This document shows positions 19,757 to 43,605 of a stretch of DNA of 45,719 nucleotides, piece by piece (the first letter of the stretch is position 1; each line of letters opens with the position of its first letter). The stretch comes from a virus. Taxonomy: Duplodnaviria > Caudoviricetes. The translations under genes were made by a program, and so were the position numbers. The notes under the pieces were generated by a model, which was not told the origin of the DNA, did not search any database, and was given only the letters and a program-made list of their open reading frames with translations. The stretch is from IMG/VR virus record IMGVR_UViG_3300031519_004485, positions 1 to 45,719 of that record. One strand, written 5' to 3'.

Positions 19757-19760
19757 TTTA

Positions 19761-20426: not shown

Positions 20427-21003
20427 AAATCGTAGAATTTATGATCAAGGGTGTAATATTATTAACATGCTTCCGGGAATAGAAGACTGTTCGTATTTAG
20501 AACTAGGTGTCCGAGACAATATAAACTTTGAAGCAATAAAATGTAAAACGCAAATGAGTGTTGACATTAACGGCAAAGCAAAGTATACTGGGACAACTGA
20601 TGAGTACTTTACACAAACCAACATACCTAACTACGATATTATTTTTATTGACGCAAACCACGATAAAGAGTTTGTAGTTAGAGATTATAATAACTCAATA
20701 GAATACGCTACAAAATGGGTGCTAATTCATGATATGATTCCACCTAAGAAAAAACATGCAACCTCGGATCGTTGCTCAGATTCTTTTCGTGTACTACATT
20801 ATATGATGTCTAATACAAATATAGAATTATATCCAATGGACGAAAATTTAGGGCTAACATTAATTAAGATGCCTGCTACTAAAATTAAATTAGATAACGC
20901 TAGTACTAATTTAACTTATGAATTATTTAAATCATTTATAACAAATAAAAAAGTTTATTCAAGAACAGAAATAACAAAAATATTAAGGAACTCAAATGTT
21001 TAA
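20416..21003 (+). CDS. Class I SAM-dependent methyltransferase
   Basis: YLELGV, TDEYF, DIIFIDANH, LIHD; start reassigned to GTG 20416 after AGGAG. Confidence 0.8.
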   Translation: MASKNRRIYDQGCNIINMLPGIEDCSYLELGVRDNINFEAIKCKTQMSVDINGKAKYTGTTDEYFTQTNIPNYDIIFIDANHDKEFVVRDYNNSIEYATKWVLIHDMIPPKKKHATSDRCSDSFRVLHYMMSNTNIELYPMDENLGLTLIKMPATKIKLDNASTNLTYELFKSFITNKKVYSRTEITKILRNSNV

Positions 21004-21979: not shown

Positions 21980-22782
21980 ACATTATGATATTAGGTGCTC
22001 ATGGTATGGCCGGGCATATGATATCAAAATATTTAAAACTGCACGGACATATAGTAACTGACATTACTAGGGCGCAAGTAGACTTTGAAAATAAAACTGA
22101 AATTGACAGTTTGAATTTTGATGAGATTAACTTTGTTATTAACTGTGTAGGACTGCTAGTACAAGAAAGTATTTCTCGTCCTGACAGAGCAACATTACTT
22201 AATAGCTGGTTACCTCACTATTTGGAATACAAGCTTGCTGATACAAACACTAAACTAGTACACTTATCAACCGACTGTGTGTTTAATGGCCTAACAGGAA
22301 ATTATACTGAAGATGATATCCCTAACGAAACAAATGCATATGGTAAGTCAAAATGCTTAGGTGAAATAAACAATAGTAAGGACGTTACTTTTAGGATGAG
22401 TATCATCGGTCCTGAACTTAAACAATCTGGTACAGGTCTAATGCATTGGTTTGTTAATAAAAGTGAAGACACTGTACAAGGGTGGGATAATGCATTTTGG
22501 AACGGTATTACAACTTTAGAATTAGCAAAATGCATTAATAGTTATATAAGCAATCCAATAATTAGCGGAATATATCATGTTGTAAATAATAATAACAAAA
22601 TATCTAAGTACGAGTTGTTACAAAAAATCAATCATGTTTTTAATTTAGAAAAAAATATAATACGCACACAAGGGCCCAAACCGGCTAACAAGATTCTTGT
22701 TGACACCCGAAACGATTTTAAGTTTAATATTCCTAATTACGACACAATGCTTAATGAACTAAAACAATTTATTAATACCTAG
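21976..22782 (+). CDS. RmlD-like NDP-4-keto-6-deoxysugar reductase
   Basis: GAHGMAG, INCVG, HLSTDCVF, YGKSK (YxxxK), RMSIIGPE. Confidence 0.88.
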   Translation: MNIMILGAHGMAGHMISKYLKLHGHIVTDITRAQVDFENKTEIDSLNFDEINFVINCVGLLVQESISRPDRATLLNSWLPHYLEYKLADTNTKLVHLSTDCVFNGLTGNYTEDDIPNETNAYGKSKCLGEINNSKDVTFRMSIIGPELKQSGTGLMHWFVNKSEDTVQGWDNAFWNGITTLELAKCINSYISNPIISGIYHVVNNNNKISKYELLQKINHVFNLEKNIIRTQGPKPANKILVDTRNDFKFNIPNYDTMLNELKQFINT

Positions 22783-22811
22783 CCAAAATTATATTTGTAA
22801 TAAACTGCACA

Positions 22812-22819
22812 TATAAATA
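22812..22819 (+). promoter_or_regulatory. T4 late-consensus promoter TATAAATA
   Basis: Exact TATAAATA, 5 nt before ATG 22825. Confidence 0.75.
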
Positions 22820-22824
22820 ACTAC

Positions 22825-23583
22825 ATGAACAGAATTGTATTAGTAACAGGTGGATTTGACCCACTACACAGCGGGCATATTGCCTATTTCAAAGAAGCAA
22901 AGAAATTAGGCGATCGATTGATCGTTGGCCTAAATTCAGATGAATGGCTTGAGCGTAAAAAGGGCAAAGCATTTATGCCTTGGAATGAGCGCCTATGCAT
23001 TGTAAACAACTTACAAATGGTAGACGAAGTTTTTACATTTATGGACGATGATGATTCTGCTATAAATTTTATAAAACAAGTTAAAGCACACTATCCCAAC
23101 GATAAAATAATATTTGCCAATGGCGGCGACCGAACCTCTGAAAACATTCCTGAGATGGCTGTTGAAGGTGTAGAGTTTGTATTTGGTGTCGGTGGAGAAA
23201 ACAAAGCTAACAGTTCGAGCTGGATACTAGAAGAGTGGAAAGCACCAAAAACAGAACGCCAGTGGGGGTACTACAGAGTGATACACGAATATGATGAACA
23301 CACTAAAGTAAAAGAATTAGCAGTACCACCTGGTGGTAAATTATCAATGCAGCGTCACACAGAACGTGCCGAACATTGGTTTGTTGCAGAAGGTACTGCA
23401 ACTGTATATACAATTAATAGAAATACAGACATAGAAACATTAGGTGTATATGCACAGCATCAGTCATTGCATATACCTGTAGGAACTTGGCATCAACTTG
23501 CTAACGAACACGAAACAACACTTAAACTTGTAGAAATACAATACGGAACAAATTGCGTGGAGAGCGACATTGAACGAAGATAA
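22825..23583 (+). CDS. Cytidylyltransferase-like (RfaE/TagD-type) domain fused to mannose-6-phosphate-isomerase-type cupin
   Basis: GGFDPLHSGH (HxGH), GLNSD, FANGGDR, SSSWIL; C-terminal RQWGYY, LSMQRH..RAEHW, WHQL, EIQYG...ESDIER. Confidence 0.9.
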   Translation: MNRIVLVTGGFDPLHSGHIAYFKEAKKLGDRLIVGLNSDEWLERKKGKAFMPWNERLCIVNNLQMVDEVFTFMDDDDSAINFIKQVKAHYPNDKIIFANGGDRTSENIPEMAVEGVEFVFGVGGENKANSSSWILEEWKAPKTERQWGYYRVIHEYDEHTKVKELAVPPGGKLSMQRHTERAEHWFVAEGTATVYTINRNTDIETLGVYAQHQSLHIPVGTWHQLANEHETTLKLVEIQYGTNCVESDIERR

Positions 23584-25264
23584 TCCATTACGAATATATG
23601 TAGGATACGATCCTAGAGAACATGATGCGTATGAAGTATGTAAATACAGTATACTTCATAATACAGAAGCCAATGTTGAAATAATTCCTATTAAACAAAA
23701 AAAATTACGCAAACAAGATATATATTGGAGAGAAGACGATCCGTTATCGTCGACTGAATTTACGTTTACTCGATTTCTTATTCCATACTTAGCAGAGTAC
23801 AACGGCTGGGCATTGTTTATAGATTGCGATTTTGTGTTTACTGATGATGTTCAAAATTTGTTCAATCATGCAAATGACAAATATGCAGTAATGTGTGCTC
23901 AACACGATTACAAGCCTAAAGAAGGTCTCAAGATGGATGGCAAACAACAACATGTTTATCCACGCAAAAATTGGTCAAGTATGATGCTAATTAATTGTGG
24001 CCATCCGTCAAATCGAAAACTTGATTTAAACCTAGTAAACAACCCAAATAAAACTGGTGCATATTTTCATAGATTTAGTTGGCTAACCGATAAAGAAATT
24101 GGCAGATTATCACACCAATGGAATTGGTTAGTAGGGCATTACAAATCACCTGAACATGGCACACCACAAGCATTACATTACACCGAAGGCGGCCCCTGGT
24201 TTGATGATTATAGAGAGTGCGAGTTTAATCATATATGGTACGAATATAAAATAAAACTACTCGAAAACGTTATTAAGAAACAAGAAAAAATATACGATAA
24301 GCTAAACACTGCTGACAATTTAAGTTTAACTGATAGCAAAAAGGTTATTATCAATACGTTGCTACATCACTTAGTTGACCCTCAAGGAAATTTTTATAGC
24401 GGATCGACTAAAGAAAAATTAGACATACTTATAAAGGATGAAATAGACATGGGAAACAAAGTTGCAACAATAGATAGCGAGGGCGGCGTAGGGTATGCAA
24501 AAAAAGGACACGAATATGACACGTACCTTACAGCATTTGTGCTAGGGTCAACAGGAACAATATCAAGTTGGGACCGAGAAAAAGATACTAAAACTCCATT
24601 AGTAATACGAGGCTTAGGAGGCGGCAGTAGAAAAGCTATTCAACATTGCTGGGCTTCTAAGAGAGATTTCTACGCAATTGACACAGGCTATCTTGGCAAT
24701 GGCAAAAGTAAATATTGGCATCGTGTAACTAAAAATGCACTACAACAACCGGGCCCAATTGTCGAACGTGACACTGATAGACTAAAAGGGCTAGGATGGA
24801 AGTTTAATAAGTTTACACCAGGAAGGAAGATTTTAATATGTCCTCCTAGTTTAAAAGTTATGGAGTTATGGGGACAGCCTGATCCTGAAACTTGGGTACA
24901 ACAAACTATAGCACGACTTAAATTACTAACTGATCGTCCTATTGAGGTTCGAATGAAACCTCGACGAGGAGACCGTGTTACACATAACAGTATCGAAGCT
25001 GCCTTAGCAGATGACGTACATTGTTTAATTACTTACAATAGTATTGCTGCTACTGAAGCTATTTTTGCAGGTAAGCCCGCAATTGCATTAGGTCCTAATG
25101 CAGCTTCGGTAATATGTCCTACAGATTTATCAAAAGTAGAAAGCTTAATTATCCCATCAAAGGATGATGTTGAAGCGTTTGCTAGGCATTTAAGTTACTG
25201 TCAGTTTAGCTATGGTGAGTTACAAAACGGCACCGCCTGGCGAATATTAAATGAAGGTAGTTAG
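23570..25264 (+). CDS. GT8-like glycosyltransferase fused to a KpsS/KpsC-like (capsule synthesis) domain
   Basis: N half: IYVGYDPRE, STEFTFTRF, DCDF, YPRKNWSS, HYTEGGPW. C half: IDTGY, VRMKP, ITYNSIAATEAIFAGKP, LSYCQF..EL..G. Confidence 0.75.
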   Translation: MNEDNPLRIYVGYDPREHDAYEVCKYSILHNTEANVEIIPIKQKKLRKQDIYWREDDPLSSTEFTFTRFLIPYLAEYNGWALFIDCDFVFTDDVQNLFNHANDKYAVMCAQHDYKPKEGLKMDGKQQHVYPRKNWSSMMLINCGHPSNRKLDLNLVNNPNKTGAYFHRFSWLTDKEIGRLSHQWNWLVGHYKSPEHGTPQALHYTEGGPWFDDYRECEFNHIWYEYKIKLLENVIKKQEKIYDKLNTADNLSLTDSKKVIINTLLHHLVDPQGNFYSGSTKEKLDILIKDEIDMGNKVATIDSEGGVGYAKKGHEYDTYLTAFVLGSTGTISSWDREKDTKTPLVIRGLGGGSRKAIQHCWASKRDFYAIDTGYLGNGKSKYWHRVTKNALQQPGPIVERDTDRLKGLGWKFNKFTPGRKILICPPSLKVMELWGQPDPETWVQQTIARLKLLTDRPIEVRMKPRRGDRVTHNSIEAALADDVHCLITYNSIAATEAIFAGKPAIALGPNAASVICPTDLSKVESLIIPSKDDVEAFARHLSYCQFSYGELQNGTAWRILNEGS

Positions 25265-26192
25265 TTATTATAATGTAGTACCTGGTAAAAATAAAAGCCA
25301 AGAAAAATTTGATATACTAACTAAGTTTATTAACGGCGTTAATGCTGCTGGCGATGAAGGTGTACTGCATAAACAATCTAATATAGTTAATTGCGATGTC
25401 GGAGTCATTCAAGGATGGCAACATGACCGAGGCAAGTCTGCTCCGCATTTACAATTAAGACAAAAAGTAATTGAAACACAAACTAATGCTAGCAAGTATG
25501 TTGTTTCAGGTGATGCTAATTTGTTTCTGTATGCAAATAAATCTAACCAACCACATCATTATTTACGCTATAGTTTTAATGGCATATTTCCTAGCACCGG
25601 AATATATTGCGATGATACTCCAGATCCAAAACGCTGGCAGCAAATATCCAAAGACACTGGGATAGAACTACAAGATTATAAAACTAAAGGAAAGACTATT
25701 GTTGTCTGTATGCAGCGCGAAGGCGGTTGGAGTATGGGACCAATGTCTATAGTTAACTGGACTAAGAACGTAGTAACTGAAATTAGAAAACATACTGATA
25801 GAAAGATTATTTTAAGACCTCATCCAGGAGACAAAAAAGCATTGTTAACATATCTGCCAGTCTTACAACAATTCTTTAAATCAGCAGCTGATGTAAAAAT
25901 ATCACAGTTTGGAACACCGATAGAACAAGATTTACATAAAGCCTGGGCAGTTGTAAATCACAATAGTAGTAGTGTAGTAGGTCCTATTATACAAGGATAT
26001 CATGCATTCATAACCGATCCTGAAAAGTCGCAGTGTACTGATGTTTCGCATACAGATTTTAGTAAAATTGAAACTCCTCAGCAGTTTGACAGACAAGCTT
26101 GGCTCGAGCGTATAAGCATGTTTCATTGGAAGTTTAGTGAACTAGACGATGGAACATGCTGGAAACATATGAGAAATTATGTGCGCCAGTAG
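25251..26192 (+). CDS. KpsS/KpsC-like GT-B protein (putative CMP-sugar transferase)
   Basis: VVCMQ, ILRPHP, AVVNHNSSSVVGPIIQG, DRQAWL...W...EL..G. Confidence 0.6.
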   Translation: MKVVSYYNVVPGKNKSQEKFDILTKFINGVNAAGDEGVLHKQSNIVNCDVGVIQGWQHDRGKSAPHLQLRQKVIETQTNASKYVVSGDANLFLYANKSNQPHHYLRYSFNGIFPSTGIYCDDTPDPKRWQQISKDTGIELQDYKTKGKTIVVCMQREGGWSMGPMSIVNWTKNVVTEIRKHTDRKIILRPHPGDKKALLTYLPVLQQFFKSAADVKISQFGTPIEQDLHKAWAVVNHNSSSVVGPIIQGYHAFITDPEKSQCTDVSHTDFSKIETPQQFDRQAWLERISMFHWKFSELDDGTCWKHMRNYVRQ

Positions 26193-29141: not shown

Positions 29142-30604
29142 TGGCATCATGTAAATTAATAATCGAAGATGAAGTAAACATTAGGATTGAAGGTCTTGAA
29201 GTAGATGTACGCCGGCAACTTGCAAATGCACTCAAGTTTGAAGTGCCTTATGCAAAGCATATGCCGCAATACAAACTTGGACGCTGGGATGGTAAAGTTG
29301 CTTTCTTTGGCATCGGCGGCAGTGGTTATGTTAATCACTTAGATGTAGTACAACGTGTACTAGCAAAGAACCGAGTACAGATCATTGACATTGAAGACAG
29401 ACGTCAGCCGGTTGATTTAAACTTTAAGCATGTAACAGAAGACTACTGGAAGGACCAAGGAGTTGTTTGGCCTGAAGGACATCCTGCAGAAGGTGAAGAT
29501 ATTATTCTGCGTGACTATCAAGTAGCAGCTATTAATACATTCTTGGATAATCCACAAAGCTTGCAACAGATTGCTACTGGCGCAGGTAAAACTATTACTA
29601 CAGCAACACTATCGCATATAACTGAGCCTTACGGACGTAGTCTTGTAATTGTTCCTAACAAGTCGTTAGTAGAACAAACAGAAGAAGACTATATTAACTG
29701 TGGGCTCGACGTTGGTGTGTACTTCGGCGACAGGAAGATGCTAGGTAAGACTCACACAATTTGCACTTGGCAAAGTTTAAATATACTTGACAAGAAGAAC
29801 AAGGACGGCAGCGCAGTACTAAGCCTTGCAGAGTTCCTTGATGGTGTGAGCACAGTTATTGTCGACGAAGTACACATGGCCAAAGCAGAAGTACTAAAGA
29901 ACTTACTTACACGTAACTTGAAGAACGCTCCGATACGTTGGGGACTAACTGGCACTGTGCCTAGAGAGAAGTTTGAGTTTGAAAGTATTCATGCAAGCTT
30001 AGGTCCGGTTGTTGGAAGCATTACAGCAAAGTCGTTACAGGATCAAGGAGTGCTATCAGCATGCCATGTTAACGTGTGTCAACTGATTGATGTTGTAGCA
30101 CATTCAGACTATCAAGGCGAACTAAAATACCTAACATCAGATCCTAAACGGTTAGCATACATTGCTAAGATGATGAACACTGTATCGCAAACAGGCAACA
30201 CACTAATCTTAGTAGACAGGATTAGCGCAGGACAAACACTAGCAGAACTTATCCCTGGTAGCACTTTCGTAAGTGGTGCAGTTAAAGTGAAAGACAGAAA
30301 ACAAACTTATGATACGATTCGTGAAGGAACAAATGAAGTTATTATTGCGACATATGGTGTCGCTGCGGTGGGCCTTAATATCCCTCGCATTTTTAATCTT
30401 GTACTCTTGGAGCCTGGCAAATCATTTGTAAGAGTAATACAATCAATCGGACGTGGCGTTCGTAAAGCAAAAGACAAAGACTTCGTTCAAATTTGGGACT
30501 TGACATCAACATGCAAGTTTGCGAAGCGACACTTAACTCAGCGTAAGAAATTTTACAAAGAAGCAGAGTACCCATTTACAATTGAGAAAGTGGACTGGAA
30601 CTAA
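29141..30604 (+). CDS. uvsW: SF2 DNA helicase UvsW
   Basis: WDGK, LRDYQ, ATGAGKT, VDEVH, GLTGT, QSIGRGVR. Confidence 0.93.
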   Translation: MASCKLIIEDEVNIRIEGLEVDVRRQLANALKFEVPYAKHMPQYKLGRWDGKVAFFGIGGSGYVNHLDVVQRVLAKNRVQIIDIEDRRQPVDLNFKHVTEDYWKDQGVVWPEGHPAEGEDIILRDYQVAAINTFLDNPQSLQQIATGAGKTITTATLSHITEPYGRSLVIVPNKSLVEQTEEDYINCGLDVGVYFGDRKMLGKTHTICTWQSLNILDKKNKDGSAVLSLAEFLDGVSTVIVDEVHMAKAEVLKNLLTRNLKNAPIRWGLTGTVPREKFEFESIHASLGPVVGSITAKSLQDQGVLSACHVNVCQLIDVVAHSDYQGELKYLTSDPKRLAYIAKMMNTVSQTGNTLILVDRISAGQTLAELIPGSTFVSGAVKVKDRKQTYDTIREGTNEVIIATYGVAAVGLNIPRIFNLVLLEPGKSFVRVIQSIGRGVRKAKDKDFVQIWDLTSTCKFAKRHLTQRKKFYKEAEYPFTIEKVDWN

Positions 30605-31242
30605 TGACATATCCTGTTGAACCAACAATATTTACATCTAACCCATATGATACAGCTTGGTATGATATTGACTTCTTTCATAGTCCAGATGGTAGCGAAC
30701 AATTTCCTAATCATCATTGCAAGCAAACTTGGCTAGCTAGCATCCCTTTTATTACAACTTATAGAAATGCAATTGATATAGGATGTCGTGACGGAGAGTA
30801 TTCTCGCTACTTGCACAAAGACTTTGAGCATGTTTTTTGTTTTGATTATAGACGTCGAAAGTTATTTCATAATAATGTAGACTTAAAAAAGATTACACAT
30901 TTTAAATGTGCGTTAGGCGAAGAAAGTAAAATAATAACCGTTAGCGGTGGCGGAAGTATTACAACTGGAAAGATACCTAAAGAAAAATGGTATGACGAAC
31001 AATTGTACACAGTTGATCAATTTAACTTACCTAACATTGATTATATTAAAATTGATGTTGACGGATTTGAATTGAGAGTATTACAAGGAGCAGTAAATAC
31101 AATAATACAGCATTCTCCTTTGATAGTTTTTGAGCAAGAATCTGATAACAATGATGTTATTAATTTTTGTAAAGAACTAGGTTACGAAACAGCAACATGG
31201 GACCAATCCCATCGAAATATAATAATGAGGAAGATATTGTAA
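30604..31242 (+). CDS. FkbM-family methyltransferase
   Basis: AIDIGCRDG, ALG, IDYIKIDVDGFELRVLQGA..TI....P.IVFE. Confidence 0.85.
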   Translation: MTYPVEPTIFTSNPYDTAWYDIDFFHSPDGSEQFPNHHCKQTWLASIPFITTYRNAIDIGCRDGEYSRYLHKDFEHVFCFDYRRRKLFHNNVDLKKITHFKCALGEESKIITVSGGGSITTGKIPKEKWYDEQLYTVDQFNLPNIDYIKIDVDGFELRVLQGAVNTIIQHSPLIVFEQESDNNDVINFCKELGYETATWDQSHRNIIMRKIL

Positions 31243-31748
31243 TGAGAATACTAACACTAGAAAACGAATGCTTTATTTTAAACAATTTACCAGATGAACT
31301 AGATGAGGATGTAAGATTTAGTGTATTAGATAATTCGGATCCTAAGGAACCTGATTTCTTTTTTATACCATTAATCTTTTTAGAATCTTTTAGCAGTCCA
31401 GCAATTGTAATGGAAATAAACGGACACGAGCTTATGATGCCGATTGACTGGAGTATAGCAGTTGGTGATAGTCAAAGTGGATGTGACTTAGAAATACTTC
31501 CGCTAACAAGTATTAATGATAGAGGATTTGAAGCATTTTTATTTAATCCACGAACCAGTTTTAAGTGCGACTTTGGTACTCTTAAAATAACTAATTTTTA
31601 CAGTGATGTAAAATGGTACTTTCCTAAGATGAAAAATGGTCAGCTACTAAGTGTACCAATTACAGAAGGTAAAAATCCAGACTGTGCATATTTTGTAAAA
31701 GATATAAGCAGACAAAGTGAAGTAATAGATTATAGTCAACTGTTGTAA
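31242..31748 (+). CDS. Hypothetical beta-rich protein (168 aa)
   Basis: Start reassigned to ATG 31242 (TAATG overlap, GAGG RBS). Confidence 0.75.
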   Translation: MRILTLENECFILNNLPDELDEDVRFSVLDNSDPKEPDFFFIPLIFLESFSSPAIVMEINGHELMMPIDWSIAVGDSQSGCDLEILPLTSINDRGFEAFLFNPRTSFKCDFGTLKITNFYSDVKWYFPKMKNGQLLSVPITEGKNPDCAYFVKDISRQSEVIDYSQLL

Positions 31749-31761
31749 GAAAGGAAATATA

Positions 31762-32121
31762 ATGGGAATTAAAGCAGGAAAAGTATGGGGAGCCACAGAG
31801 CTGATCCATGCAAACGGAGCATTAGAGTTTCACCGCATTAACTTTAATGCAGGATTCAAATGCAGTGAACACGCACATGAATTTAAATGGAACGGATTCT
31901 TTGTTGAATCGGGCAAGATGATTGTTCGAGTTTGGCAAGATGATCAAGGACTAGTTGATGAAACTATTCTTGAAGCAGGAGACTTTACGCAAGTGAAGCC
32001 AGGCAAGATTCACCAGTTTGAAGGTTTAGAAGACGGTGTCGCTTTTGAACTATACTGGGCTGAATTTAATCACGATGATATTGTTCGTCGTACTAGTGGC
32101 ACCGAAATAGGAAAGAAATAA
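31762..32121 (+). CDS. Cupin-domain protein (sugar isomerase-like)
   Basis: KVWG, CSEHAHEFKWNGFFVESG, GKIHQF, DDIVR. Confidence 0.8.
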   Translation: MGIKAGKVWGATELIHANGALEFHRINFNAGFKCSEHAHEFKWNGFFVESGKMIVRVWQDDQGLVDETILEAGDFTQVKPGKIHQFEGLEDGVAFELYWAEFNHDDIVRRTSGTEIGKK

Positions 32122-32124
32122 AAT

Positions 32125-32823
32125 ATGTTTAAAAATATTGATAAGAAAATGATGTTAAAACTTGCACTATTGCACGTTGTCATTATCACAATAAGTAACG
32201 CACTAGTTGCTATTCCAGTAGAGATCGCTGGATTTAAATTAACTTGGGCAGCGTTTACGTTTCCACTAGTTATTCTAGCAACTGACTTAACAGTACGTAT
32301 GTTAGGTAAGAACATTGCTCGAGCAACTATTCTAGCAGCGTATCCTATTGCTATCATTGCAAGTATTGCAGTAGTTCTAGCAGAAGGTGCACCAGAAAGT
32401 GTAGCAATGCGTATTGGCTTTGCAAGTGCAACAGCGTATGCAGTAGGTACATTCCTTGATGTATATGTGTTTCAATACTTCCGTGAGAACTGGTCAAAGC
32501 AGTGGTGGATTGCTCCAGCGTTGTCAACAGTTGTTGCAAACGTAATTGATAGTTACACATTCTTTGCAGTTGCGTTTAACAACTCAGCAGATGAGTATAT
32601 GGCTGCTAACTGGATAGAAATTGCTACAAGTCAAGCAGGCTTAAAGATTGCAGTAGGATTAATTATCTTCCTTCCAGCATACGGATTCTTGCTACGTTAT
32701 CTAAATGGCAGACTAGTTGATGCTCCAGTAGAAGCACCAAAGCCAGTAGCTAAGAAGAAAGCACCAGCTAAGAAGAAAGCACCAGCTAAGAAGAAAGCAC
32801 CAGCTAAGAAGAAAGCTGACTAA
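32125..32823 (+). CDS. yhhQ: Queuosine precursor (preQ0/preQ1) transporter, YhhQ/Vut_1 family, with basic tail
   Basis: H..IITISNALV..P, TWAAFTFP.V.LATDLTVR..G..AR, ASATAY..G..LDV.VF, WWIAP..S...N.IDS..FF.VAF match YhhQ; multiple hydrophobic segments. Confidence 0.9.
   Translation: MFKNIDKKMMLKLALLHVVIITISNALVAIPVEIAGFKLTWAAFTFPLVILATDLTVRMLGKNIARATILAAYPIAIIASIAVVLAEGAPESVAMRIGFASATAYAVGTFLDVYVFQYFRENWSKQWWIAPALSTVVANVIDSYTFFAVAFNNSADEYMAANWIEIATSQAGLKIAVGLIIFLPAYGFLLRYLNGRLVDAPVEAPKPVAKKKAPAKKKAPAKKKAPAKKKAD
32749..32816 (+). repeat. 18-bp tandem repeat (~3.8 copies) encoding AKKKAP
   Basis: GCTAAGAAGAAAGCACCA x3 plus partial copy. Confidence 0.95.
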
Positions 32824-32824
32824 T

Positions 32825-33352
32825 ATGTTTAGTCAAAAGTACATAGAAGAGCTTCGCGTAATACATGCTGACACTTCGCGTAAGAAAGGTTTTGGCGGCG
32901 CCCTAAAAAAATTAGGACAGTTTCATAATTACATGGAACAATGGAAGCCTTCTAGTGTACTTGATTACGGCTGTGGTAAAGGAACAATACTTGTTAGTCT
33001 TAGCGAACAATATCCTGATACAAACTTTATAGGTTACGACCCAGCTGTAATACATTATGCTAATACCGCAACTAATGCAGATTGTGTGTTTAGTAATGAT
33101 GTTCTAGAACACATTGAACCAAACCATATTATTAGTGTGCTGACACATATCAATTCACTGTCGGCACACTATGTTTGGTTAAGAATAGATACAATACCTG
33201 CTCGTAAACGATTGTCTGATGGACGCAATGCACATTTGATTTTAGAATCAGCTGAATGGTGGACTGACATTATACAACGTAACATTAGTGGAAAAATTGT
33301 TTATAGCGAATTAACAAAAAAAGGTAAATTTGACATTGCAATTGAAAAATAA
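32825..33352 (+). CDS. Class I SAM-dependent methyltransferase
   Basis: VLDYGCGKG, GYDPA, DVLEHIEP, DGRNAHL. Confidence 0.88.
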   Translation: MFSQKYIEELRVIHADTSRKKGFGGALKKLGQFHNYMEQWKPSSVLDYGCGKGTILVSLSEQYPDTNFIGYDPAVIHYANTATNADCVFSNDVLEHIEPNHIISVLTHINSLSAHYVWLRIDTIPARKRLSDGRNAHLILESAEWWTDIIQRNISGKIVYSELTKKGKFDIAIEK

Positions 33353-33353
33353 A

Positions 33354-33608
33354 ATGATAGAAGGCGAAGCATTATTATACACTCGTGTTGACGGCGTAGT
33401 GTATGCACAGTACCGCGACGCACCACACAGTAAAATTCCACGTTGGGTCATCGGTGGTGATCCTGCGGGAGTTGCTAGAGCACAAGGTGATTTAATAAAC
33501 TATGCTGAGTGGCAAGAGCTATGTGCCCTTAGCTTAGAGTATCCTACATTACGAAAGTTGTTAGATACATTAGTAACAACTTATTATACAGTTAAGGAAA
33601 ACAAATGA
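33354..33608 (+). CDS. Hypothetical protein (84 aa)
   Basis: ATG 33354 follows the previous stop; ATGA-coupled to kdsA. Confidence 0.7.
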   Translation: MIEGEALLYTRVDGVVYAQYRDAPHSKIPRWVIGGDPAGVARAQGDLINYAEWQELCALSLEYPTLRKLLDTLVTTYYTVKENK

Positions 33609-34384
33609 GAATTATAGCAGGACCGTGTCAGCACGAGTCATTGGGACAATCAGCAGCCATTGCAGAGAAGTGTAAAACAGTATGCGACAAGTACGGCATT
33701 GAATACTACTTCAAAGCAAGTTTTGATAAAGCAAATCGTTCTAGCTTAGGCAATAAGCGAGGAGTAGGTATAAATCAAACATTGGCTGACTTTAGACTAC
33801 TTAAAGAAGTGCATGGTGTTAAGACCCTCACAGATGTTCATACGGTAGAGCATTGTAGTCACATTACTTCTTTCTTTAATGATGCAGTAGATGTGCTACA
33901 GATACCTGCTTTCCTTTGCAGACAAACTGACTTGTTACGAGCTGCTTGTGCTACAGATAAAGTTGTTAATATTAAGAAAGGTCAATTCCTTGCACCGTGG
34001 GATATGAAGGGTATATTAACTAAGACAGAAGGTGCTAAAGAGGTTTGGATAACCGAGAGAGGAACAAGTTTTGGATATAACACATTGGTTGTCGACTTCA
34101 CTGGTCTACAATATATGTTGGATAATTTTAGCGAGCCATTGGTGTTCGATTGTACACATGCTGTACAGAAACCGGGCGGGCTCGGCGGATCGTCAGGTGG
34201 TAATCGTGACTACGTCCCTGGCATGGCTCGCGCTGGTAGTGCTTTGGGCATTTCATCTTTCTTTTTAGAAGTACATCCTGACCCAGACAACGCACCTAGT
34301 GACGGACCTAATATGTTACGCTTAGATGACTTTGAAAGTGTAGTAGCAGACATAGTTGCAATCAACAAAGTAGTAGCAGTATGA
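33605..34384 (+). CDS. kdsA: KDO8P synthase (3-deoxy-8-phosphooctulonate synthase)
   Basis: IAGPC, KASFDKANRSS, QIPAFLCRQTDLL, NIKKGQFLAP, ERGTSFGYN, D.THAVQ.PG, EVHPDP..APSDG; the Cys/His/Glu/Asp set suggests the metal-dependent class. Confidence 0.97.
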   Translation: MRIIAGPCQHESLGQSAAIAEKCKTVCDKYGIEYYFKASFDKANRSSLGNKRGVGINQTLADFRLLKEVHGVKTLTDVHTVEHCSHITSFFNDAVDVLQIPAFLCRQTDLLRAACATDKVVNIKKGQFLAPWDMKGILTKTEGAKEVWITERGTSFGYNTLVVDFTGLQYMLDNFSEPLVFDCTHAVQKPGGLGGSSGGNRDYVPGMARAGSALGISSFFLEVHPDPDNAPSDGPNMLRLDDFESVVADIVAINKVVAV

Positions 34385-35073
34385 GCAAGAAAACAGCAAT
34401 ACTAATTCCAGCACGTTACGAAAGCACACGCTTTCCCGGAAAGCCTCTTGCTATGTTAGATGGCGTTCCTATGATAAAACGTGTGTATGACGCTTGTGTT
34501 GCGTCTAAGCTACCAACATACGTGCTTACTGATGATAGACGTATTGCAGATTTAATACCCGATAAGCACTTTTGGATTGATGAACAAGATGAATATGATA
34601 ACGGCACAGAACGGTGTGCTGGCGCTGTGAAATACTGTTCTCAATTAGAACAGTACGATCAATTTATTAATGTGCAAGGTGACATGCCTGACGTAACAAC
34701 GGATATGGTTAACAAATGCATTTCAAGCTTGCAACATTATGCTGTAAGCACAGTGTTTACAAAGATGCCAGAAGAAAAACAAAATGATCCTAACTCAGTT
34801 AAGATGGTACGTGCTGGCGACAGCGCACTTTGGTTTGGTAGAGGTATGACAGGTTACGGCGAATGGCACCTAGGTGTTTACGGATACAAGCGTAATGCAT
34901 TAGAAATGTATCCTAATCTAATTGTAGAACGTGAAGAAGAAGTAGAGAAACTAGAACAACTCCGCTGGTTAAAAAACGGTTGGCAGATCGGCTGTTTGAG
35001 TGTATACTATAATGGAGTAGAGATAAACGCACCAGAGGATGTAGACGAATGGCAGCAGAAAAACTTGCAATAA
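34381..35073 (+). CDS. kdsB: CMP-Kdo synthetase (3-deoxy-manno-octulosonate cytidylyltransferase)
   Basis: IPARYESTRFPGKPLA, GTER, INVQGD.P, HLGVYGY, EKLEQLRWL. Confidence 0.95.
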   Translation: MSKKTAILIPARYESTRFPGKPLAMLDGVPMIKRVYDACVASKLPTYVLTDDRRIADLIPDKHFWIDEQDEYDNGTERCAGAVKYCSQLEQYDQFINVQGDMPDVTTDMVNKCISSLQHYAVSTVFTKMPEEKQNDPNSVKMVRAGDSALWFGRGMTGYGEWHLGVYGYKRNALEMYPNLIVEREEEVEKLEQLRWLKNGWQIGCLSVYYNGVEINAPEDVDEWQQKNLQ

Positions 35074-35516
35074 AAGAAATTCTCAGTTGGATCGATAATG
35101 GGCAAAGTGACATTTGGAATCACTTAGAAGATGATCATAAGAAACAAATTAGCTTTTGGTTATTGAATAGATATGTAGCAAGTGTACAAGGTAGTCGCGA
35201 AAAGCAAGAGCTTGCTATTTTTAAAACCAATGAATACTACAATAAACATTTTAATATAATTGGTGTTGGTAAGGATAACGGACATCAAAAGTTGATGTGG
35301 CAGTTACTATGTATGAGCGGCAATACAGGCAAGAATGAATTTCATCCTTGGATTGGGTTTAAGAAGAAAACTGGCGATAATAATAAAGGCGTAAAGTTAA
35401 TAGAACAACTTCATCCTAATATGAAACAAAACGAGGTTGAAATACTTGCTTCACTATATACAAAAAAAGAACTCAAACAATTGGCTGAGGAACATAACAT
35501 TGACATCAAGCTCTGA
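35049..35516 (+). CDS. Probable clamp loader small subunit (T4 gp62-like)
   Basis: SFWLLNRY, FHPWI, LYTKKELK pattern and size resemble gp62-like proteins. Confidence 0.55.
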   Translation: MAAEKLAIKEILSWIDNGQSDIWNHLEDDHKKQISFWLLNRYVASVQGSREKQELAIFKTNEYYNKHFNIIGVGKDNGHQKLMWQLLCMSGNTGKNEFHPWIGFKKKTGDNNKGVKLIEQLHPNMKQNEVEILASLYTKKELKQLAEEHNIDIKL

Positions 35517-36195
35517 GAAACCATACAAGTGCGATTACTGCGGAAGCAGTTACGTGAGAGAGTCTACTCTTGCAGCGCACATGTGTGAAAAGAAACGCAG
35601 AGCTTTACAAAAAGATGAAAAGCGTGTTCGTTATGGATATTATGCATTTGGAAGATTCTATAAATTAAGTGCAGGAACAAAGAAAGAAAAAACATACGAA
35701 GAGTTTTGTAAGAGCAGTTACTATAATGCATTTGTAAAGTTTGGCAGCTTCCTTAATAATGTTAAGCCGTTGTATCCAGAAAGATATATTGACTATGTTG
35801 TAACTAGCGGAGTAAAACTTGATCATTGGTGCAAAGACGAATTGTATGAAAAATATGCACTAGAGTTTATTCTTAAGGAAGATGTACATACTGCATTAGA
35901 ACGCAGCGTAAAAACAATGTCAGAATGGGCAGTCGAACATCAACCTGCGCCCTGGAATCATTACTTCCAACACATTAGTACTAACCGAGCTGTGTGGGAT
36001 ATTAAAGACGGAAAAATTAGTCCTTGGCTTATACTTAATTGTGCCAGCGGCAAAGATATGTTAGGCAACTTTAACGATGAACAACTAGCATTAGTGTATC
36101 ACGTAATTAATCCAGAACACTGGGCAGTAAGATTTCGACGACTGCCTACTGATGTACAGCTTGTTAAAGATGTTGCAAAGGAAAGTAATTTATGA
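35500..36195 (+). CDS. Hypothetical protein with N-terminal zinc finger
   Basis: EKPYKCDYCGSSYVRESTLAAHMC; probable TTG start at 35500 after GAGG. Confidence 0.75.
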   Translation: MTSSSEKPYKCDYCGSSYVRESTLAAHMCEKKRRALQKDEKRVRYGYYAFGRFYKLSAGTKKEKTYEEFCKSSYYNAFVKFGSFLNNVKPLYPERYIDYVVTSGVKLDHWCKDELYEKYALEFILKEDVHTALERSVKTMSEWAVEHQPAPWNHYFQHISTNRAVWDIKDGKISPWLILNCASGKDMLGNFNDEQLALVYHVINPEHWAVRFRRLPTDVQLVKDVAKESNL

Positions 36196-36377
36196 TCAGA
36201 AAATTATTAGATGGGACAACAGTACCGTCATTAGATATACCAATAGAACTGATTGTTAAAACAAAATGCCCAGGCAAGTATAAACTAGTTGACCTAGAAA
36301 CTGGATTAGAGTATACTGGTGTTATACCAGATTCTAACGACGGATATTTTTGGAAGAGAACCGATGAAGCCCAATAA
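36192..36377 (+). CDS. Hypothetical protein (61 aa)
   Basis: ATGA-coupled ORF; KTKCPGKY.LVDLETG motif. Confidence 0.65.
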   Translation: MIRKLLDGTTVPSLDIPIELIVKTKCPGKYKLVDLETGLEYTGVIPDSNDGYFWKRTDEAQ

Positions 36378-36594
36378 CAACTTTGAACTCACAGTAAGAG
36401 ATATTGAACTCATTGAACGTGCCTTGCAAGGGAAAATATCAAGGCGTGGAGTAAGTGTGGCATTGGATCCTAAGAGTGTATACGCTCCAGAACTACAGGA
36501 AGAGATTGATGAAATGAGAGATCTGTTGGGTCGCATACATCATCAAAAAGTTTGGTACAGACCTAAAGATGGCAGATTCCAAGGAGGTGGCTAA
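36364..36594 (+). CDS. Hypothetical protein (76 aa)
   Basis: Start reassigned to ATG 36364; TAATG-coupled to the DnaE-like gene. Confidence 0.65.
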   Translation: MKPNNNFELTVRDIELIERALQGKISRRGVSVALDPKSVYAPELQEEIDEMRDLLGRIHHQKVWYRPKDGRFQGGG

Positions 36595-37160
36595 TGCCTG
36601 ATATTGACATTGACTTTGCAGACAGAGATATTATACTATCTCAACTAGAACATCGTGTGGCAAAGTTAAACACAGGTAAGAAGCACAACACCGGAGTCTA
36701 CGCAACAGAGATTCCACACAACCCTATTGACAACTTGGCTACGGTTGAACATAAGGCAGCAGACGAACGTGGCTATTTTAAATTAGACTTCCTTAACGTA
36801 AGCATCTATAAAGACGTTAAGGATAATGAACACTTAACACAATTAATGGAAAGGGAACCACTATGGCAACTTCTGGAACACACGGACTTCAGCGACAAAG
36901 TCTTTCATCTAAACGGGCACGGCGAACTATTGAAGCAATTGAAGCCGTCGTCGGTACAACAATTAGCAGCGACACTAGCAATCATTCGTCCAGCGAAACG
37001 GTATCTATCGAAGAGCAATTGGAATTTGATTTTTCAAGAAGTGTGGACGAAACCTGAGGAAGGGTATTACTTTAAGAAAGCGCATGCCATTTCTTATGCA
37101 ATGGCGTGTGTGGTACACATGAATTTATTGTGTGAGCAATTAAAATCCGGAAGTAAATAA
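36594..37160 (+). CDS. Miniature DNA polymerase III alpha (DnaE, family C) catalytic-core protein, 188 aa
   Basis: PDIDIDF, KHNTGVY, GYFKLDFL, LKP....LAATLAIIRP, YYFKKAHAISYA in canonical DnaE order; AGGAGG RBS. Confidence 0.85.
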   Translation: MPDIDIDFADRDIILSQLEHRVAKLNTGKKHNTGVYATEIPHNPIDNLATVEHKAADERGYFKLDFLNVSIYKDVKDNEHLTQLMEREPLWQLLEHTDFSDKVFHLNGHGELLKQLKPSSVQQLAATLAIIRPAKRYLSKSNWNLIFQEVWTKPEEGYYFKKAHAISYAMACVVHMNLLCEQLKSGSK

Positions 37161-37916
37161 ATGTTTTTTAAAAATGTTAAGATAATTAAATACACCCAGG
37201 CAAGAAATAAAGTACTATTTCAATGTGATGAAGAGTTTTTTAATAACTGGGGAATTTATAATTTGTTGTCCTGTAACGAAATAGGATACAATGTACATCT
37301 TCATCTTATTAATCCTTCTGAGCCATTCTTAACAAAAATTTTAAATATTAATTTAGACATCGAATTATCTATTAGCACTGAAACACTAGATACTAATATT
37401 AATTTTTATAAACTAAAAAGTTATTATTTTGTATCTCGTTATTATATTTCTAGTTTACTATTTGATTTAGATTTAGTAGATAAGTTATACATCACAGATG
37501 CTGATATTATCTTTAATGAAAAACTTAATATGCCTGCTGATACAACCTTAGGAATTTTGTATTATCCGTTAGCTAACAACCTTTGGAAACAAACAGGCGC
37601 TAATATTTTATTTGTAACTAAGCAACGCAATGATTATTTAAAAAAAGTATTAGCTGATTATGAAATTAGATTGATGTCTACAGACTTTGATGCTATTACT
37701 GTTACATTAGATAAAATTACTAAAGCTAATGCGTATGCGTTAGATCAAGTTTGCATGTCGCATGTCTTAAAAAATGAAAAAGATTTTCTTAATTTAAATT
37801 CCATTGACAATTTTATTGGCAAAGACGACTCGTATAAAATATGGTCATTAACTGGCGGCCACCAAAAAGCTAGAGATGATATTAAAGAAAAATTAAAATT
37901 AAGATTTGGGGTTTAA
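37161..37916 (+). CDS. Glycosyltransferase-like protein (GT-A, DxD)
   Basis: HLHLIN, SRY, YITDADIIF, LDQ, KIWS; very AT-rich. Confidence 0.55.
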   Translation: MFFKNVKIIKYTQARNKVLFQCDEEFFNNWGIYNLLSCNEIGYNVHLHLINPSEPFLTKILNINLDIELSISTETLDTNINFYKLKSYYFVSRYYISSLLFDLDLVDKLYITDADIIFNEKLNMPADTTLGILYYPLANNLWKQTGANILFVTKQRNDYLKKVLADYEIRLMSTDFDAITVTLDKITKANAYALDQVCMSHVLKNEKDFLNLNSIDNFIGKDDSYKIWSLTGGHQKARDDIKEKLKLRFGV

Positions 37917-38284
37917 CTTTTTGGACGTCTAACTAATTGAACGCTTTTGCGTTTGATGCGTTTAACTGATAGGTTACTTAAATTAACACATGGACCTACG
38001 GTTACTTTTACATCTTTACTATTCATAGTCATTACTGCATATGCATAAGGTGCTACCTCGTTGCGCAGAAATATATTAATAGGAATTAATCTATTTGACT
38101 CCCACCACCAACTATCACCTAGTTCTAAAAATGCGTTACGTTCTTCAATTGTCTTGAGTGAAGTGTATATGTACATACTAGTAATGTATTGGTCTTGATT
38201 AGCAATGATGCCGACATACTCGTTGCCACCGTAAGTGACCACGCTTATGAATGGAAAATTCGTTTCAATATCTTTTAATAACAT
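37913..38284 (-). CDS. Hypothetical protein (123 aa)
   Basis: FPFISV, EYVGII, WWWESNRLIPI; start reassigned to ATG 38284; minus-strand TAAATA at 38324-38329. Confidence 0.75.
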   Translation of the reverse strand: MLLKDIETNFPFISVVTYGGNEYVGIIANQDQYITSMYIYTSLKTIEERNAFLELGDSWWWESNRLIPINIFLRNEVAPYAYAVMTMNSKDVKVTVGPCVNLSNLSVKRIKRKSVQLVRRPKS

Positions 38285-38305
38285 AGGTTCCCGATAAATA
38301 AAGTT

Positions 38306-39088
38306 ATGCAACTAACACCTAGATATTTAGTCAATAATAGAACAACCATTGTAACTAATGAAGCAGGATTCATAACGGAGTACAAGCCAGTGTATCAACG
38401 ACAATTAAAAGTCTATAGAGGAATCAATAATGTACTTGATTTTAAAGTTTTAAACGCAGATCAAAAACCAATTGATGTGTCTGCGTACACACCTAAGTTC
38501 CAAGCATTTGATGAGAACAACAGATTAATTTTAGAATACAACGGCACTGCTGTTCCTAGTGATGATAGCAGTTTGATTAGAGGATTGTTTCAAGTCACAG
38601 TTAGCGAAAATGATTTATTAAACGTTAAGCAACAGTATATAAAATATAATATACATCTTGTAGATGCAGCTAACTCAGCAACACTTACCTATACAGATAC
38701 ACACTTCGGAATGGACGGAATTATATATGTAAGTAGTCAAGCATTTCCTGGACCATCAGCAAGTCTTAGTATTTCAGCCTTTGCTGCACACAGTGATAAC
38801 TCCTGGTATACAGGTTCTGTAATTGCACAACCTGCAATTAACGGTAACGAAGCATTGCATACTGCTGTAGTTTATACAAACGCATACCAAGGCGAAGTAG
38901 TAGTACAAGCAACGTTAGATAACCAAGTAACAGATAATACATCATGGGCAGATGTTGCAACAGTAGTATTAAGCGGCACTGAGTCAGAACCAACACCTGT
39001 TAATTTTAACGGAGTGTTTAGTCATTTAAGATTTAAAGCAACTGCAAACCCTGCAGACAAAATAACAAAAATTTTAATAAGGAATTAA
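38306..39088 (+). CDS. Probable virion structural protein (beta-sandwich-like)
   Basis: TAAATA 5 nt upstream; alternating beta-strand pattern; VQATL, NFNGVFSHLRF. Confidence 0.6.
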   Translation: MQLTPRYLVNNRTTIVTNEAGFITEYKPVYQRQLKVYRGINNVLDFKVLNADQKPIDVSAYTPKFQAFDENNRLILEYNGTAVPSDDSSLIRGLFQVTVSENDLLNVKQQYIKYNIHLVDAANSATLTYTDTHFGMDGIIYVSSQAFPGPSASLSISAFAAHSDNSWYTGSVIAQPAINGNEALHTAVVYTNAYQGEVVVQATLDNQVTDNTSWADVATVVLSGTESEPTPVNFNGVFSHLRFKATANPADKITKILIRN

Positions 39089-39873: not shown

Positions 39874-40854
39874 ATGAGTATTGTATCTGACATCATCATA
39901 GCACACCTGCCTGGTAAGCGCAAGACCACACCTAGTGGTTGGACTAGCTTTAACGCACCCTGCTGTCATCACAATGGCAATGCAATGGACAAACGTGGAC
40001 GTGGTGGACTTATTAGCGAAGGAGACACAGTAAGCTATCACTGCTTTAATTGTGGATATAAAGCTAGTTGGCAACCAGGCAGAGCGGTGTCTGTGAAGCT
40101 GCGTAAGCTTCTACAGTGGCTCGGTTGTAGTGATGATACAATAACTAAAATGACTTTTGATGTAATGCGCATAAACGAAGGTGTGCAAGTAGCAGAGCGT
40201 AAGATAGAGATACCTACGTTTGAAACTGTGCCGTTGCCAGACGATGCTATTCGTATTGCAGACATTACAGAGTTTAATAAGTTTAGCATAGCTATAGTTG
40301 AATACATGGCAGCACGACACTTGAACTTAGATGATACTGATTACTATTGGTGCCCAAGTCTAGCATACAGAGATAGATTAATTATTCCGTTCTACTATGA
40401 GAATCGTATAATAGGTTGGACTGGTAGAACTATTACAGCAGACAAAAAGCCCAAGTACATGAACGAACAACAACCGGGCTTTGTATATGGACTAGACAAA
40501 CAAACGTATGATAAAGAGTTTGCTATACTTGTTGAAGGTCCAATGGATGCTATTCACATAGACGGATGTGCGCTAGGTGGAAGTGAGATTAACGATGCAC
40601 AAGCATTACTACTTAACAGACTGAGTAAAGAGATTGTTGTTGTGCCTGATAGAGACCATGCAGGCAAGAAGCTTGTAGAAGATGCTATCGGCAGAGGATG
40701 GGGAGTTAGTATGCCCGAATGGGATCAAGAGATTAATGACGTCGGCGATTGTGTAGATAAGTACGGGAGACTATATGCATTATATAGCATTGCTAGTGCA
40801 GCAGAAACTAGCCCACTTAAAATTAGACTGAGAGCAAAGAAATGGTTCGTATGA
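39874..40854 (+). CDS. DNA primase (T4 gp61/DnaG-like)
   Basis: Zn-binding APCC...YHCFNC, RLIIPF, GWTGR, PKY, TOPRIM VEGPMDA and PDRD..G. Confidence 0.92.
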   Translation: MSIVSDIIIAHLPGKRKTTPSGWTSFNAPCCHHNGNAMDKRGRGGLISEGDTVSYHCFNCGYKASWQPGRAVSVKLRKLLQWLGCSDDTITKMTFDVMRINEGVQVAERKIEIPTFETVPLPDDAIRIADITEFNKFSIAIVEYMAARHLNLDDTDYYWCPSLAYRDRLIIPFYYENRIIGWTGRTITADKKPKYMNEQQPGFVYGLDKQTYDKEFAILVEGPMDAIHIDGCALGGSEINDAQALLLNRLSKEIVVVPDRDHAGKKLVEDAIGRGWGVSMPEWDQEINDVGDCVDKYGRLYALYSIASAAETSPLKIRLRAKKWFV

Positions 40855-42153: not shown

Positions 42154-43605
42154 ATGACAACTAGACAAAATACAGATTACGGTTACGATATACAGCGAGT
42201 GTATCTAGAAATGTTTATGACAGATGCTGAGAGCTTTGTACGCTGTCAGGGTGTGTTTGATCCAGAGACATTTGATAGGCGTTTGATTGAACCTGCAAAG
42301 TTTGTTAAGAGCTATGTAGATGAACACAATGCATTGCCTACATTTGATATGGTTAATGCAGCAACACAAAGTGATTTGAAACATCCGGGTGACTTGATGG
42401 AGAATCACTATGACTGGTTGCTACAAGACTTTGAAACGTTTAGTAAGCACAAAGCATTAGAAGCGGCTATCTTACAAAGTGCAGACTTGCTTGAAAAGGG
42501 CGAGTATGGCGCATGTGAAGATTTGGTCAAGCAGGCTGTGCAAATTGGTTTGCAAAAAGACTTGGGTACAGATTACTTCTTAGACCCTAGGGCAAGACTA
42601 AACGCTATCAAAGATAAGAACGGACAGATTAGTACAGGCTGGCCCACACTGGATAAGAAATTGTTTGGTGGCTTTAATAGAGGCGAGCTTAACATCTTTG
42701 CAGGCGGGTCTGGCTCAGGTAAGAGTTTGTTCCTAGCTAACATGGGTGTGAACTGGTGCCTACAAGGCCTTAACGTAATGTACTTGACGTTTGAGCTTAG
42801 TGAGAACTTGGTTAGTATGCGGCTTGACAGTATGGTATCAGACATTCCTAGTCGTGATGTGTTTAAGAGTCTTGACGATGTTGAGATGAAAGTTAAGATG
42901 ATTGGCAAGAAGAGTGGTGCATTCCAAGTTAAGTATATGCCCACAGGCAAGACAGCAAACGATGTACGTGCATACTTGAAAGAGTATGAGATTAAAACAG
43001 GACGTAAGATTGACGTACTATTGATTGACTACTTAGATCTTATGCATCCAATTGGACAAAAGATTAGCGCAGAGAACTTGTTTGTTAAAGACAAGTATGT
43101 ATCAGAAGAACTACGTAACCTAGCAATGGAACTTAATACAATCTTTGTTACAGCGTCACAGTTGAACAGAGCAGCAGTTGAAGAAATTGAATTTGATCAC
43201 AGTATGATCTCAGGTGGTATATCTAAGATTAATACAGCAGACAACTTGATTGGTATCTTTACAAGTAGAGCAATGCGTGAGCGTGGACGCTATCAGATTC
43301 AGTTAATGAAGACACGTTCGAGTAGTGGTGTTGGTATGAAGGTTGATCTAGCATTTAATGTAGACACACTACGCATTGAAGACCTAGGTGAAGATGATCA
43401 AGAGAACAGCGGCGGCACCAACTATGGAAGTGCAAGCACTAGTGCAAGCTCGATTGTTAGTTCACTCAAGCGCAACAATGCAAATGCAGGCAGTACTGGA
43501 ACAGTAAGCACTGATCCTGTAGACGGTGAACCAGCTAAAAAAATAACAGCACAAACAGACTCAACTAAACTGCGAGCGTTCTTAAACAATCTAGGCGACG
43601 AGTAA
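42154..43605 (+). CDS. Replicative DNA helicase (T4 gp41/DnaB-like)
   Basis: ISTGW..LD, GGSGSGKS Walker A, FELSE, IDYLDL, EELRNLA, TASQLNR, KTR. Confidence 0.95.
   Translation: MTTRQNTDYGYDIQRVYLEMFMTDAESFVRCQGVFDPETFDRRLIEPAKFVKSYVDEHNALPTFDMVNAATQSDLKHPGDLMENHYDWLLQDFETFSKHKALEAAILQSADLLEKGEYGACEDLVKQAVQIGLQKDLGTDYFLDPRARLNAIKDKNGQISTGWPTLDKKLFGGFNRGELNIFAGGSGSGKSLFLANMGVNWCLQGLNVMYLTFELSENLVSMRLDSMVSDIPSRDVFKSLDDVEMKVKMIGKKSGAFQVKYMPTGKTANDVRAYLKEYEIKTGRKIDVLLIDYLDLMHPIGQKISAENLFVKDKYVSEELRNLAMELNTIFVTASQLNRAAVEEIEFDHSMISGGISKINTADNLIGIFTSRAMRERGRYQIQLMKTRSSSGVGMKVDLAFNVDTLRIEDLGEDDQENSGGTNYGSASTSASSIVSSLKRNNANAGSTGTVSTDPVDGEPAKKITAQTDSTKLRAFLNNLGDE

Follow-up and report, generated by a model that had tools for sequence, protein, structure and literature searches.

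The open reading frame at positions 36594-37160 of the window (the whole stretch of DNA analysed here, a linear virus record of 45.7 kb that represents about 13% of a complete genome) very probably encodes one half of a split DnaE, which we call DnaE-C. It would pair with a separately encoded N-terminal half (N), giving an enzyme of about 375 residues (N+C) in which the N half would bring the RGS triphosphate motif and the C half the Asp triad together with the primer, template, base and sugar-gate residues. Judging from the residues that are kept, N+C is likely an active template-directed DNA polymerase, and by analogy with bacterial DnaE it may have a primer-extension role at the phage fork, a proposal to which we give slightly less than an even chance. 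A phage-specific split minimal Pol III alpha was described in group 2.2 jumbo phages by Iyer et al. in 2021 (PMC7824862), of which DnaE-C is a further instance, and the novelty implied by a preliminary description of this stretch was too high. What we add here are natural single-chain fusions of the two halves, a predicted N-C complex and a residue map.

The DnaE-C gene is a clean reading frame of 188 codons. Its start is coupled to the preceding frame, whose TAA stop (36592-36594) overlaps the ATG, and five DnaE motifs follow in the order PDIDIDF (residues 2-8), HNTGV (31-35), KLDFL (63-67), AIIRP (129-133) and YFKKAHAISYA (159-169). The preliminary description had reported these motifs in this order, in a clean frame with a strong ribosome binding site and a coupled start, and inspection of 36594-37160 confirms each of these points. 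Conservation was counted over 87 full-length sequences of 29-90% identity, made up of 77 of the 150 listed representatives, nine closer relatives and the window protein; the other 73 representatives, namely the fusion P0236 and partial matches, were omitted, and in 44 of them the Asp motif occurs within the first 30 residues. D3, D5, D7, K63, D65, R132 and P133 are invariant in this set. The features of the gene are:

36594..37160, + strand: DnaE-C, the probable C-terminal metal-, primer- and template-binding subunit of a split minimal DnaE; 188 aa, the counterpart of residues ~400-774 of E. coli DnaE with internal deletions
36581..36588, + strand: Shine-Dalgarno sequence AAGGAGGT, 5 nt before the ATG of DnaE-C
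36597..36617, + strand: PDIDIDF; D3, D5 and D7 correspond to E. coli D401, D403 and D405; invariant in 87/87
36684..36698, + strand: HNTGV; H31 corresponds to E. coli H511 (primer contact), on the kept thumb beta-hairpin; H31 in 86/87
36780..36794, + strand: KLDFL; K63 corresponds to K553 (primer phosphate) and D65 to D555 (third catalytic Asp); both in 87/87
36978..36992, + strand: AIIRP; R132 and P133 correspond to E. coli R639 and P640; 87/87
37065..37100, + strand: YYFKKAHAISYA; Y158 corresponds to Y754 (base stacking), F160 to F756 and H164 to H760 (deoxyribose steric gate)

Position 158 is Tyr or Phe in 71 of the 87 sequences, and H164 is found in 85. Promoter-like sites occur at chance level (19 versus 14.5 +/- 4.1).

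Because of sequence divergence, Pfam gave no family for the DnaE-C ORF and a single-sequence search of the PDB gave no match. A profile of the 87 relatives, however, matched nine PDB sequences, all of them DnaE (best E 2e-5), and PHROG 11778 matches DnaE-C with an E value of 5e-59, so that the DnaE likeness exceeds chance. Structure prediction likewise pointed to DnaE: the model of DnaE-C (pLDDT 95.9, pTM 0.88) retrieved DnaE in all of the top 14 Foldseek rows, although the best E value was only 1.5e-3. Aligned with E. coli DnaE, the protein begins at PDxDxD (400-406), keeps the thumb beta-hairpin (model strands E21-24 and E30-36) while the helical body of the thumb is deleted, runs co-linear via K553/D555, the F609 loop and R639/P640, jumps from about 645 to about 750, and ends past the Y754-H760 helix. 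In a 2026 cryo-EM preprint on the E. coli enzyme (bioRxiv 10.64898/2026.06.29.735100), K553 and H511 are primer contacts (K553 also in PMC8485763), R639 and P640 lie within 4 A of the templating base, Y754 and F756 roof the incoming base and H760 is the sugar gate (the last two points also in PMC8485763). According to the same preprint, R362-G363-S364 grips the nucleotide, mutation of R362 abolishes activity, and R390A carries a 27-fold cost.

The bacterial DnaE and PolC structures used as references were those of E. coli (2hnh, 5fkv), M. tuberculosis (7pu7), T. aquaticus (2hpi, 3e0d) and G. kaustophilus (3f2b). N+C shares with them the palm fold, the Asp triad, RGS and the equivalents of K553, H511, R639/P640, Y754, F756 and H760, but it has about one third of their size and comes as two chains. 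Gone are the thumb helices, the ring and little fingers, the clamp motif, HhH and OB, along with most of the index finger and any intact PHP. R390 is replaced by Glu, and R396, R709, R710, K714 and K715 are absent, R396 falling in the gap between N and C and the other four within the deleted finger segment of DnaE-C. With several basic residues gone, the triphosphate pocket of N+C appears remodelled; as a guess, K135 (kept in 80/87) and K161 (81/87) of DnaE-C and the terminal Arg/Lys of the N half could replace what was lost. The preliminary description was right about the loss of PHP, clamp, OB, thumb and finger parts, but it overlooked that the N-terminal half of the palm, with RGS, is missing from the ORF as well. 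Because the RGS motif is not in the ORF, DnaE-C alone is half an active site and no complete enzyme. A miniature enzyme consisting of the 188-aa protein by itself, as in the suggestion of a self-standing minimal nucleotidyltransferase, would be in keeping with its three Asp, its confident fold alone and the lack of an N partner in the window, but it lacks the motif whose R362 is essential in E. coli, N co-occurs with C in 8/9 large genomes and is fused to it in three clusters, and the window is 13% of a genome. We consider this reading hardly tenable.

A search of related genomes with PF07733 found the other half of the palm as a separate gene of 169-185 aa that ends just past the RGS-bearing segment. 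The N half aligns to E. coli DnaE 273-392 (probability 97.5). Of 110 distinct N halves, 109 retain RGS, 107 have Glu as the R390 equivalent and 109 have a terminal Arg or Lys; the stop lies 35-37 residues past the RGS motif in 162/163 loci, the motif pattern having picked the wrong ORF in the remaining one. The gene is present in single copy in eight of the nine large C-carrying genomes, 34-214 kb from C, while the ninth is a 73%-complete contig in which PolB is also missing. Neither the N gene nor its usual neighbours were found in the window, itself a 13%-complete contig. Likewise, N was not found in G001 and G003-G006 (0/5), nor C in G008-G011 and G015-G016, and since these contigs are 26-73% complete this is no evidence of absence. 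Record counts per genus in the phage collection, which are totals and not pairings within records, agree for N and C: Escherichia 34 vs 34, Erwinia 8 vs 8, Salmonella 8 vs 8, Xanthomonas 4 vs 4, Yersinia 4 vs 4 and Klebsiella 10 vs 11. The split between the halves falls at E. coli residue 393, with which the portion of the palm that remains rigid when DNA is bound comes to an end (bioRxiv 10.64898/2026.06.29.735100), and no intein sequence was found at the end of either half.

The N gene (L087:1174-1731, within the region L087:1174-2553) is followed by a gene of ~127 aa in 134/134 loci and by a GroES-like/head-morphogenesis gene in 133/134, also in cultured phages; its neighbours are not replication genes. 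The N half opens with ~70 residues (L087:1174-1731; residues 1-75 of P0236) that superpose on the start of PHP, with the alignment opening at residue 9-15 of every DnaE chain, while by sequence 47 of 100 shuffles scored as high. On this weak structural hint they are a possible PHP vestige. If such a remnant holds, N+C would be reduced from a full DnaE and would not be the pre-cellular ancestor as which minimal Pol III alpha was read in 2021 (PMC7824862).

Three proteins join the two halves naturally. P0236, P0288 and P0289 (ENA, Logan; three clusters) are single chains of N, a ten-residue linker and C, 375-376 aa long and 78-81% identical, known as protein records whose surrounding DNA was not found. 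Two loci checked as their DNA context proved to be ordinary bacterial DnaE. An origin by stop read-through or gene calling is disfavoured, solely by the conservation across three clusters. In a quick, midpoint-rooted tree the three fusions cluster together (100) within a clade of 13 rows (97), the remaining ten of which are stand-alone C proteins, and because they nest in this way the fusion seems to be secondary. All three had been missed when the window protein was used to look for longer forms. The sole match of that search among 1086 candidates, P0123, consists of an unrelated N-terminal part and a C half without the Asp motif, is a single member on a 1.4-kb contig, and was dropped as a probable chimera.

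Folded with 10 C and 38 N alignment rows, a mix picked after trial of nine, the fused chain gave a model of pLDDT 87.7 and pTM 0.86 with 19 Foldseek matches at E<=0.001, all of family C. VIA on this model gave Z 21.5 (rmsd 4.0, 327 aligned) versus Z 5.0 for the next family. A family C palm fold with both the Asp triad and RGS is found just in N and C together. We also predicted the complex of window C with the N half of a relative (G007), whose own C is 74% identical to that of the window. It scored 0.91 versus 0.01 for the best of three controls, the mark used being reached by 116/157 solved complexes and 2/215 mismatched pairs; the runs share at least 98% of contacts and the partner pLDDT is at least 91. 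In this predicted complex the N strand just before RGS pairs with the C strand PDIDIDF (contacts 1:149/150 with 2:6-8), so that the two halves are predicted to complete one beta-sheet across the interface. Because split-gene halves tend to pass via likeness to solved structures, such a pass shows likeness to solved DnaE and not binding, and the score may come from that likeness. The N gene in 8/9 large genomes, the fusions and PolB in 9/10 genomes favour the preliminary description's preference for streamlining over truncation and, among the options that it had offered, the split-polymerase subunit.

DnaE-C is one of a huge family of proteins that are constant in length and evolve under purifying selection. 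Among 8000 scored candidates (103-329 aa) 7986 match it, the best 120 of them being 184-203 aa long, and 406 representatives at 50% identity do so; the gene occurs in 96 cultured phage records, including PA5oct, RaK2, GAP32, Atu_ph07 and Sharanji. From the first Asp to the stop there are 183-188 codons in 75 distinct loci, which were seeded with the query's own peptides and are therefore biased towards intact motifs. The median dN/dS over these loci is 0.146 (10-90%: 0.11-0.19; 1058 of 2775 pairs with 0.05<dS<1.5). On the constant length, this ratio and the invariant Asp and Lys we reject a pseudogene or an assembly artefact. The DnaE-C ORF is an ordinary member of the family described in 2021, and the family is very common in aquatic phages. 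The sequencing runs with 71-95% of the region's sampled words are marine and brine metagenomes. Metagenome contigs at 90% likeness pile up on 36612-37116 of the window far above the flanks. This is consistent with many related phages sharing the gene, its depth being no measure of expression. Contigs from two RNA runs also cover the gene; such contigs cannot show transcription, and none among those listed spans the whole stretch.

A second frame lies inside the gene:

36863..37057, + strand: ORF of 64 codons nested within DnaE-C in its +2 frame, conserved in close relatives; a separate feature

In 72/75 loci it has an ATG and stays open for 60 codons at the least, versus 0.8 expected under synonymous re-drawing. 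Over codons 90-154 the nested frame contains 18 stops versus 322 expected, with normal stop counts on either side, and it is open in 44/47 less-related representatives; a purine-rich stretch lies upstream. The nested ORF would constrain synonymous sites and therefore, if anything, inflate the dN/dS of DnaE-C. It could add constraint to codons 90-154 even if DnaE-C were a catalytically dead DNA-binding scaffold, or a pseudogene or artefact, and the loss of many catalytic-support residues would suit such a protein. But the catalytic Asp and Lys are invariant and lie outside the nested ORF, the length is constant and the dN/dS low, and PA5oct, RaK2 and Atu_ph07 keep the DnaE-C gene, apparently without the nested ORF. 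We therefore regard a dead or decayed DnaE-C as very unlikely.

The window also carries tail sheath, terminase, gp32, UvsX, UvsY, UvsW, primase and DnaB genes, and the source, an uncultured marine phage, is a T4-like myovirus. The genes around DnaE-C that recur among related loci are:

35049..35516, + strand: conserved gene, possible clamp-loader small subunit (a lead only); 81/83 loci; phrog_11758; in a look-alike cluster (score 0.92), 13% of the members carry PF16790
35437..36195, + strand: C2H2 zinc-finger gene; 83/83 loci, including PA5oct, RaK2 and Atu_ph07
37913..38311, - strand: convergent gene phrog_11637; 81/83 loci; abuts DnaE-C in 55/81, displaced here by an inserted gene
39874..40854, + strand: DnaG-type primase; neighbour in 58/59 loci with enough flank
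42154..43605, + strand: DnaB-type replicative helicase; neighbour in 31/32 loci with enough flank

UvsW is a neighbour in 41/42 loci with enough flank. Of the neighbours named in the preliminary description, the zinc-finger gene and the primase stand, while the clamp-loader subunit is a lead only; in a 141-kb Alishewanella phage an annotated RFC small subunit is encoded four genes upstream. The gene between DnaE-C and the convergent gene (37161-37916, + strand, 251 aa) has no family match and occurs in 1/83 loci, and the small ORFs at 36192-36377 and 36319-36594 are sporadic (9/83 and 5/83 loci). Glycosyltransferase, epimerase, methyltransferase, KdsA-like, KdsB-like and Vut_1 transporter genes lie at 19046-26192 and 30604-35073 of the window.

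A family B polymerase (PolB) was found in 9 of the 10 related genomes tested and in none of the 56 window ORFs scanned. The search for further polymerase pieces, which the preliminary description had proposed along with that for PolB, gave neither PHP nor HhH above the cut-off in any of nine relatives (one weak PHP match, E 0.004), and the finger family matched just the C gene itself in 4/5. A separate DEDDh exonuclease is present in 4/9 genomes only, which does not support it as a fixed proofreading partner.

Our main reading, held tentatively and at a little under even probability, is that N+C acts as a helper polymerase, extending the primers that primase has made ahead of PolB. N+C would add a few deoxynucleotides to primers at the phage replication fork, the template-directed addition being expected because primer, template, base and sugar-gate residues are kept. 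With the clamp motif, PHP, the thumb helices, the ring and little fingers, HhH and OB all missing, its activity would be distributive and lack proofreading. The substrate would be a primer from the neighbouring primase, as for B. subtilis DnaE, which is the weakest step, and the family B polymerase would take over afterwards. In favour of such a helper are the catalytic, primer, template and sugar-gate residues at or near invariance, the single-copy N gene and the natural fusions, PolB in 9/10 genomes with primase and DnaB adjoining C, and the precedent of primer extension by DnaE (PMC5627055). On the other hand, the change of R390 to Glu, the loss of R396 at the split and the deletion of R709/R710/K714/K715 speak against it, as does the place of the N gene beside a GroES-like/head-morphogenesis gene, away from the replication genes. 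Additionally, the phage's own N gene was not seen in the window, the complex was modelled with a relative's N half, and the fusions are protein records without DNA context. T4-type PolB extends RNA primers unaided, and the need for a helper is thus not obvious.

The same anatomy would also serve a short-patch repair or recombination polymerase acting in gap filling, D-loop extension or lesion bypass, and not at each primer; an open, thumbless, unproofread site suits short patches, UvsW neighbours C in 41/42 loci, and UvsX, UvsY and gp32 are in the window. But among the conserved replication neighbours primase and DnaB lie closest, and retention in 96 cultured phage records, with one copy in each of the larger genomes tested, agrees with a core function, if not exclusively. 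We consider a repair polymerase possible but doubtful. Still less probable, in our assessment, is a repurposed nucleotidyltransferase for untemplated end addition, de novo priming, modified-nucleotide insertion or signalling. The loss of R390, R396, R709/R710 and K714/K715 would then mark a remodelled triphosphate pocket, the Pol-beta fold is common to such enzymes (weak rows, Z 5.0 or less), and the window has many sugar- and methyl-transfer genes; against it, R132/P133, K63/H31 and H164 are at or near invariance, as for templated dNTP addition. Of the repurposing that the preliminary description had raised, RNA priming or signalling is disfavoured, as the sugar-gate His and the primer/template residues are kept.

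The closest known system is the split minimal Pol III alpha of the group 2.2 jumbo phages, reported as two distant genes, one for an N-terminal part that binds NTP and one for a C-terminal part that binds Mg and the template, with no other Pol III domains and with a family B polymerase alongside (PMC7824862). A stand-alone C part with the Mg-binding Asp and template-binding elements is common to both. Atu_ph07, named as a member of group 2.2 in that paper, has homologues of both N and C; DnaE-C is 48% identical to its gene, with the same gene order. The available text of PMC7824862 mentions no natural fusion, residue map or assay, and the available parts of later genome papers list DnaE annotations and nothing further; no assay of a split minimal DnaE was found in the open-access literature. 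Whereas the 2021 system was that of jumbo phages, a 141-kb Alishewanella phage (OQ508956.1) has both halves about 11 kb apart (L267:12571-13182 and 24021-24533) as well as a family B polymerase to which two of its ORFs match, and therefore the split minimal DnaE is not confined to jumbo genomes.

Inteins split the DnaE of some cyanobacteria and phages, which are full-size replicases encoded in pieces. Split minimal DnaE is likewise in pieces, but its N half stops right after the last palm motif, its C half starts at the Asp motif, and there is no intein. Eukaryotic Pol alpha is a second low-processivity polymerase beside the main replicase, and we propose this as a feature that N+C may have in common with it and with B. 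subtilis DnaE. The B. subtilis enzyme, a primer-extending helper of PolC, is full length and works beside PolC (PMC5627055), whereas N+C is minimal, would stand beside a family B main replicase, and has this role by proposal.

In its widest form, N+C, and with it the single chain of 375 aa, would be the smallest working family C polymerase, a Pol-alpha-like enzyme with a rebuilt triphosphate pocket that matures primase-made primers for a family B replicase in a very large phage group; taken as a whole, this picture is rather unlikely to hold in every part. If active, N+C would define the minimal core of the bacterial replicase fold and would make the phage replication fork a mixed one of family B and family C. 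Given the residue map and a natural fusion in a single chain, one small gene is enough for a direct test of the enzyme.
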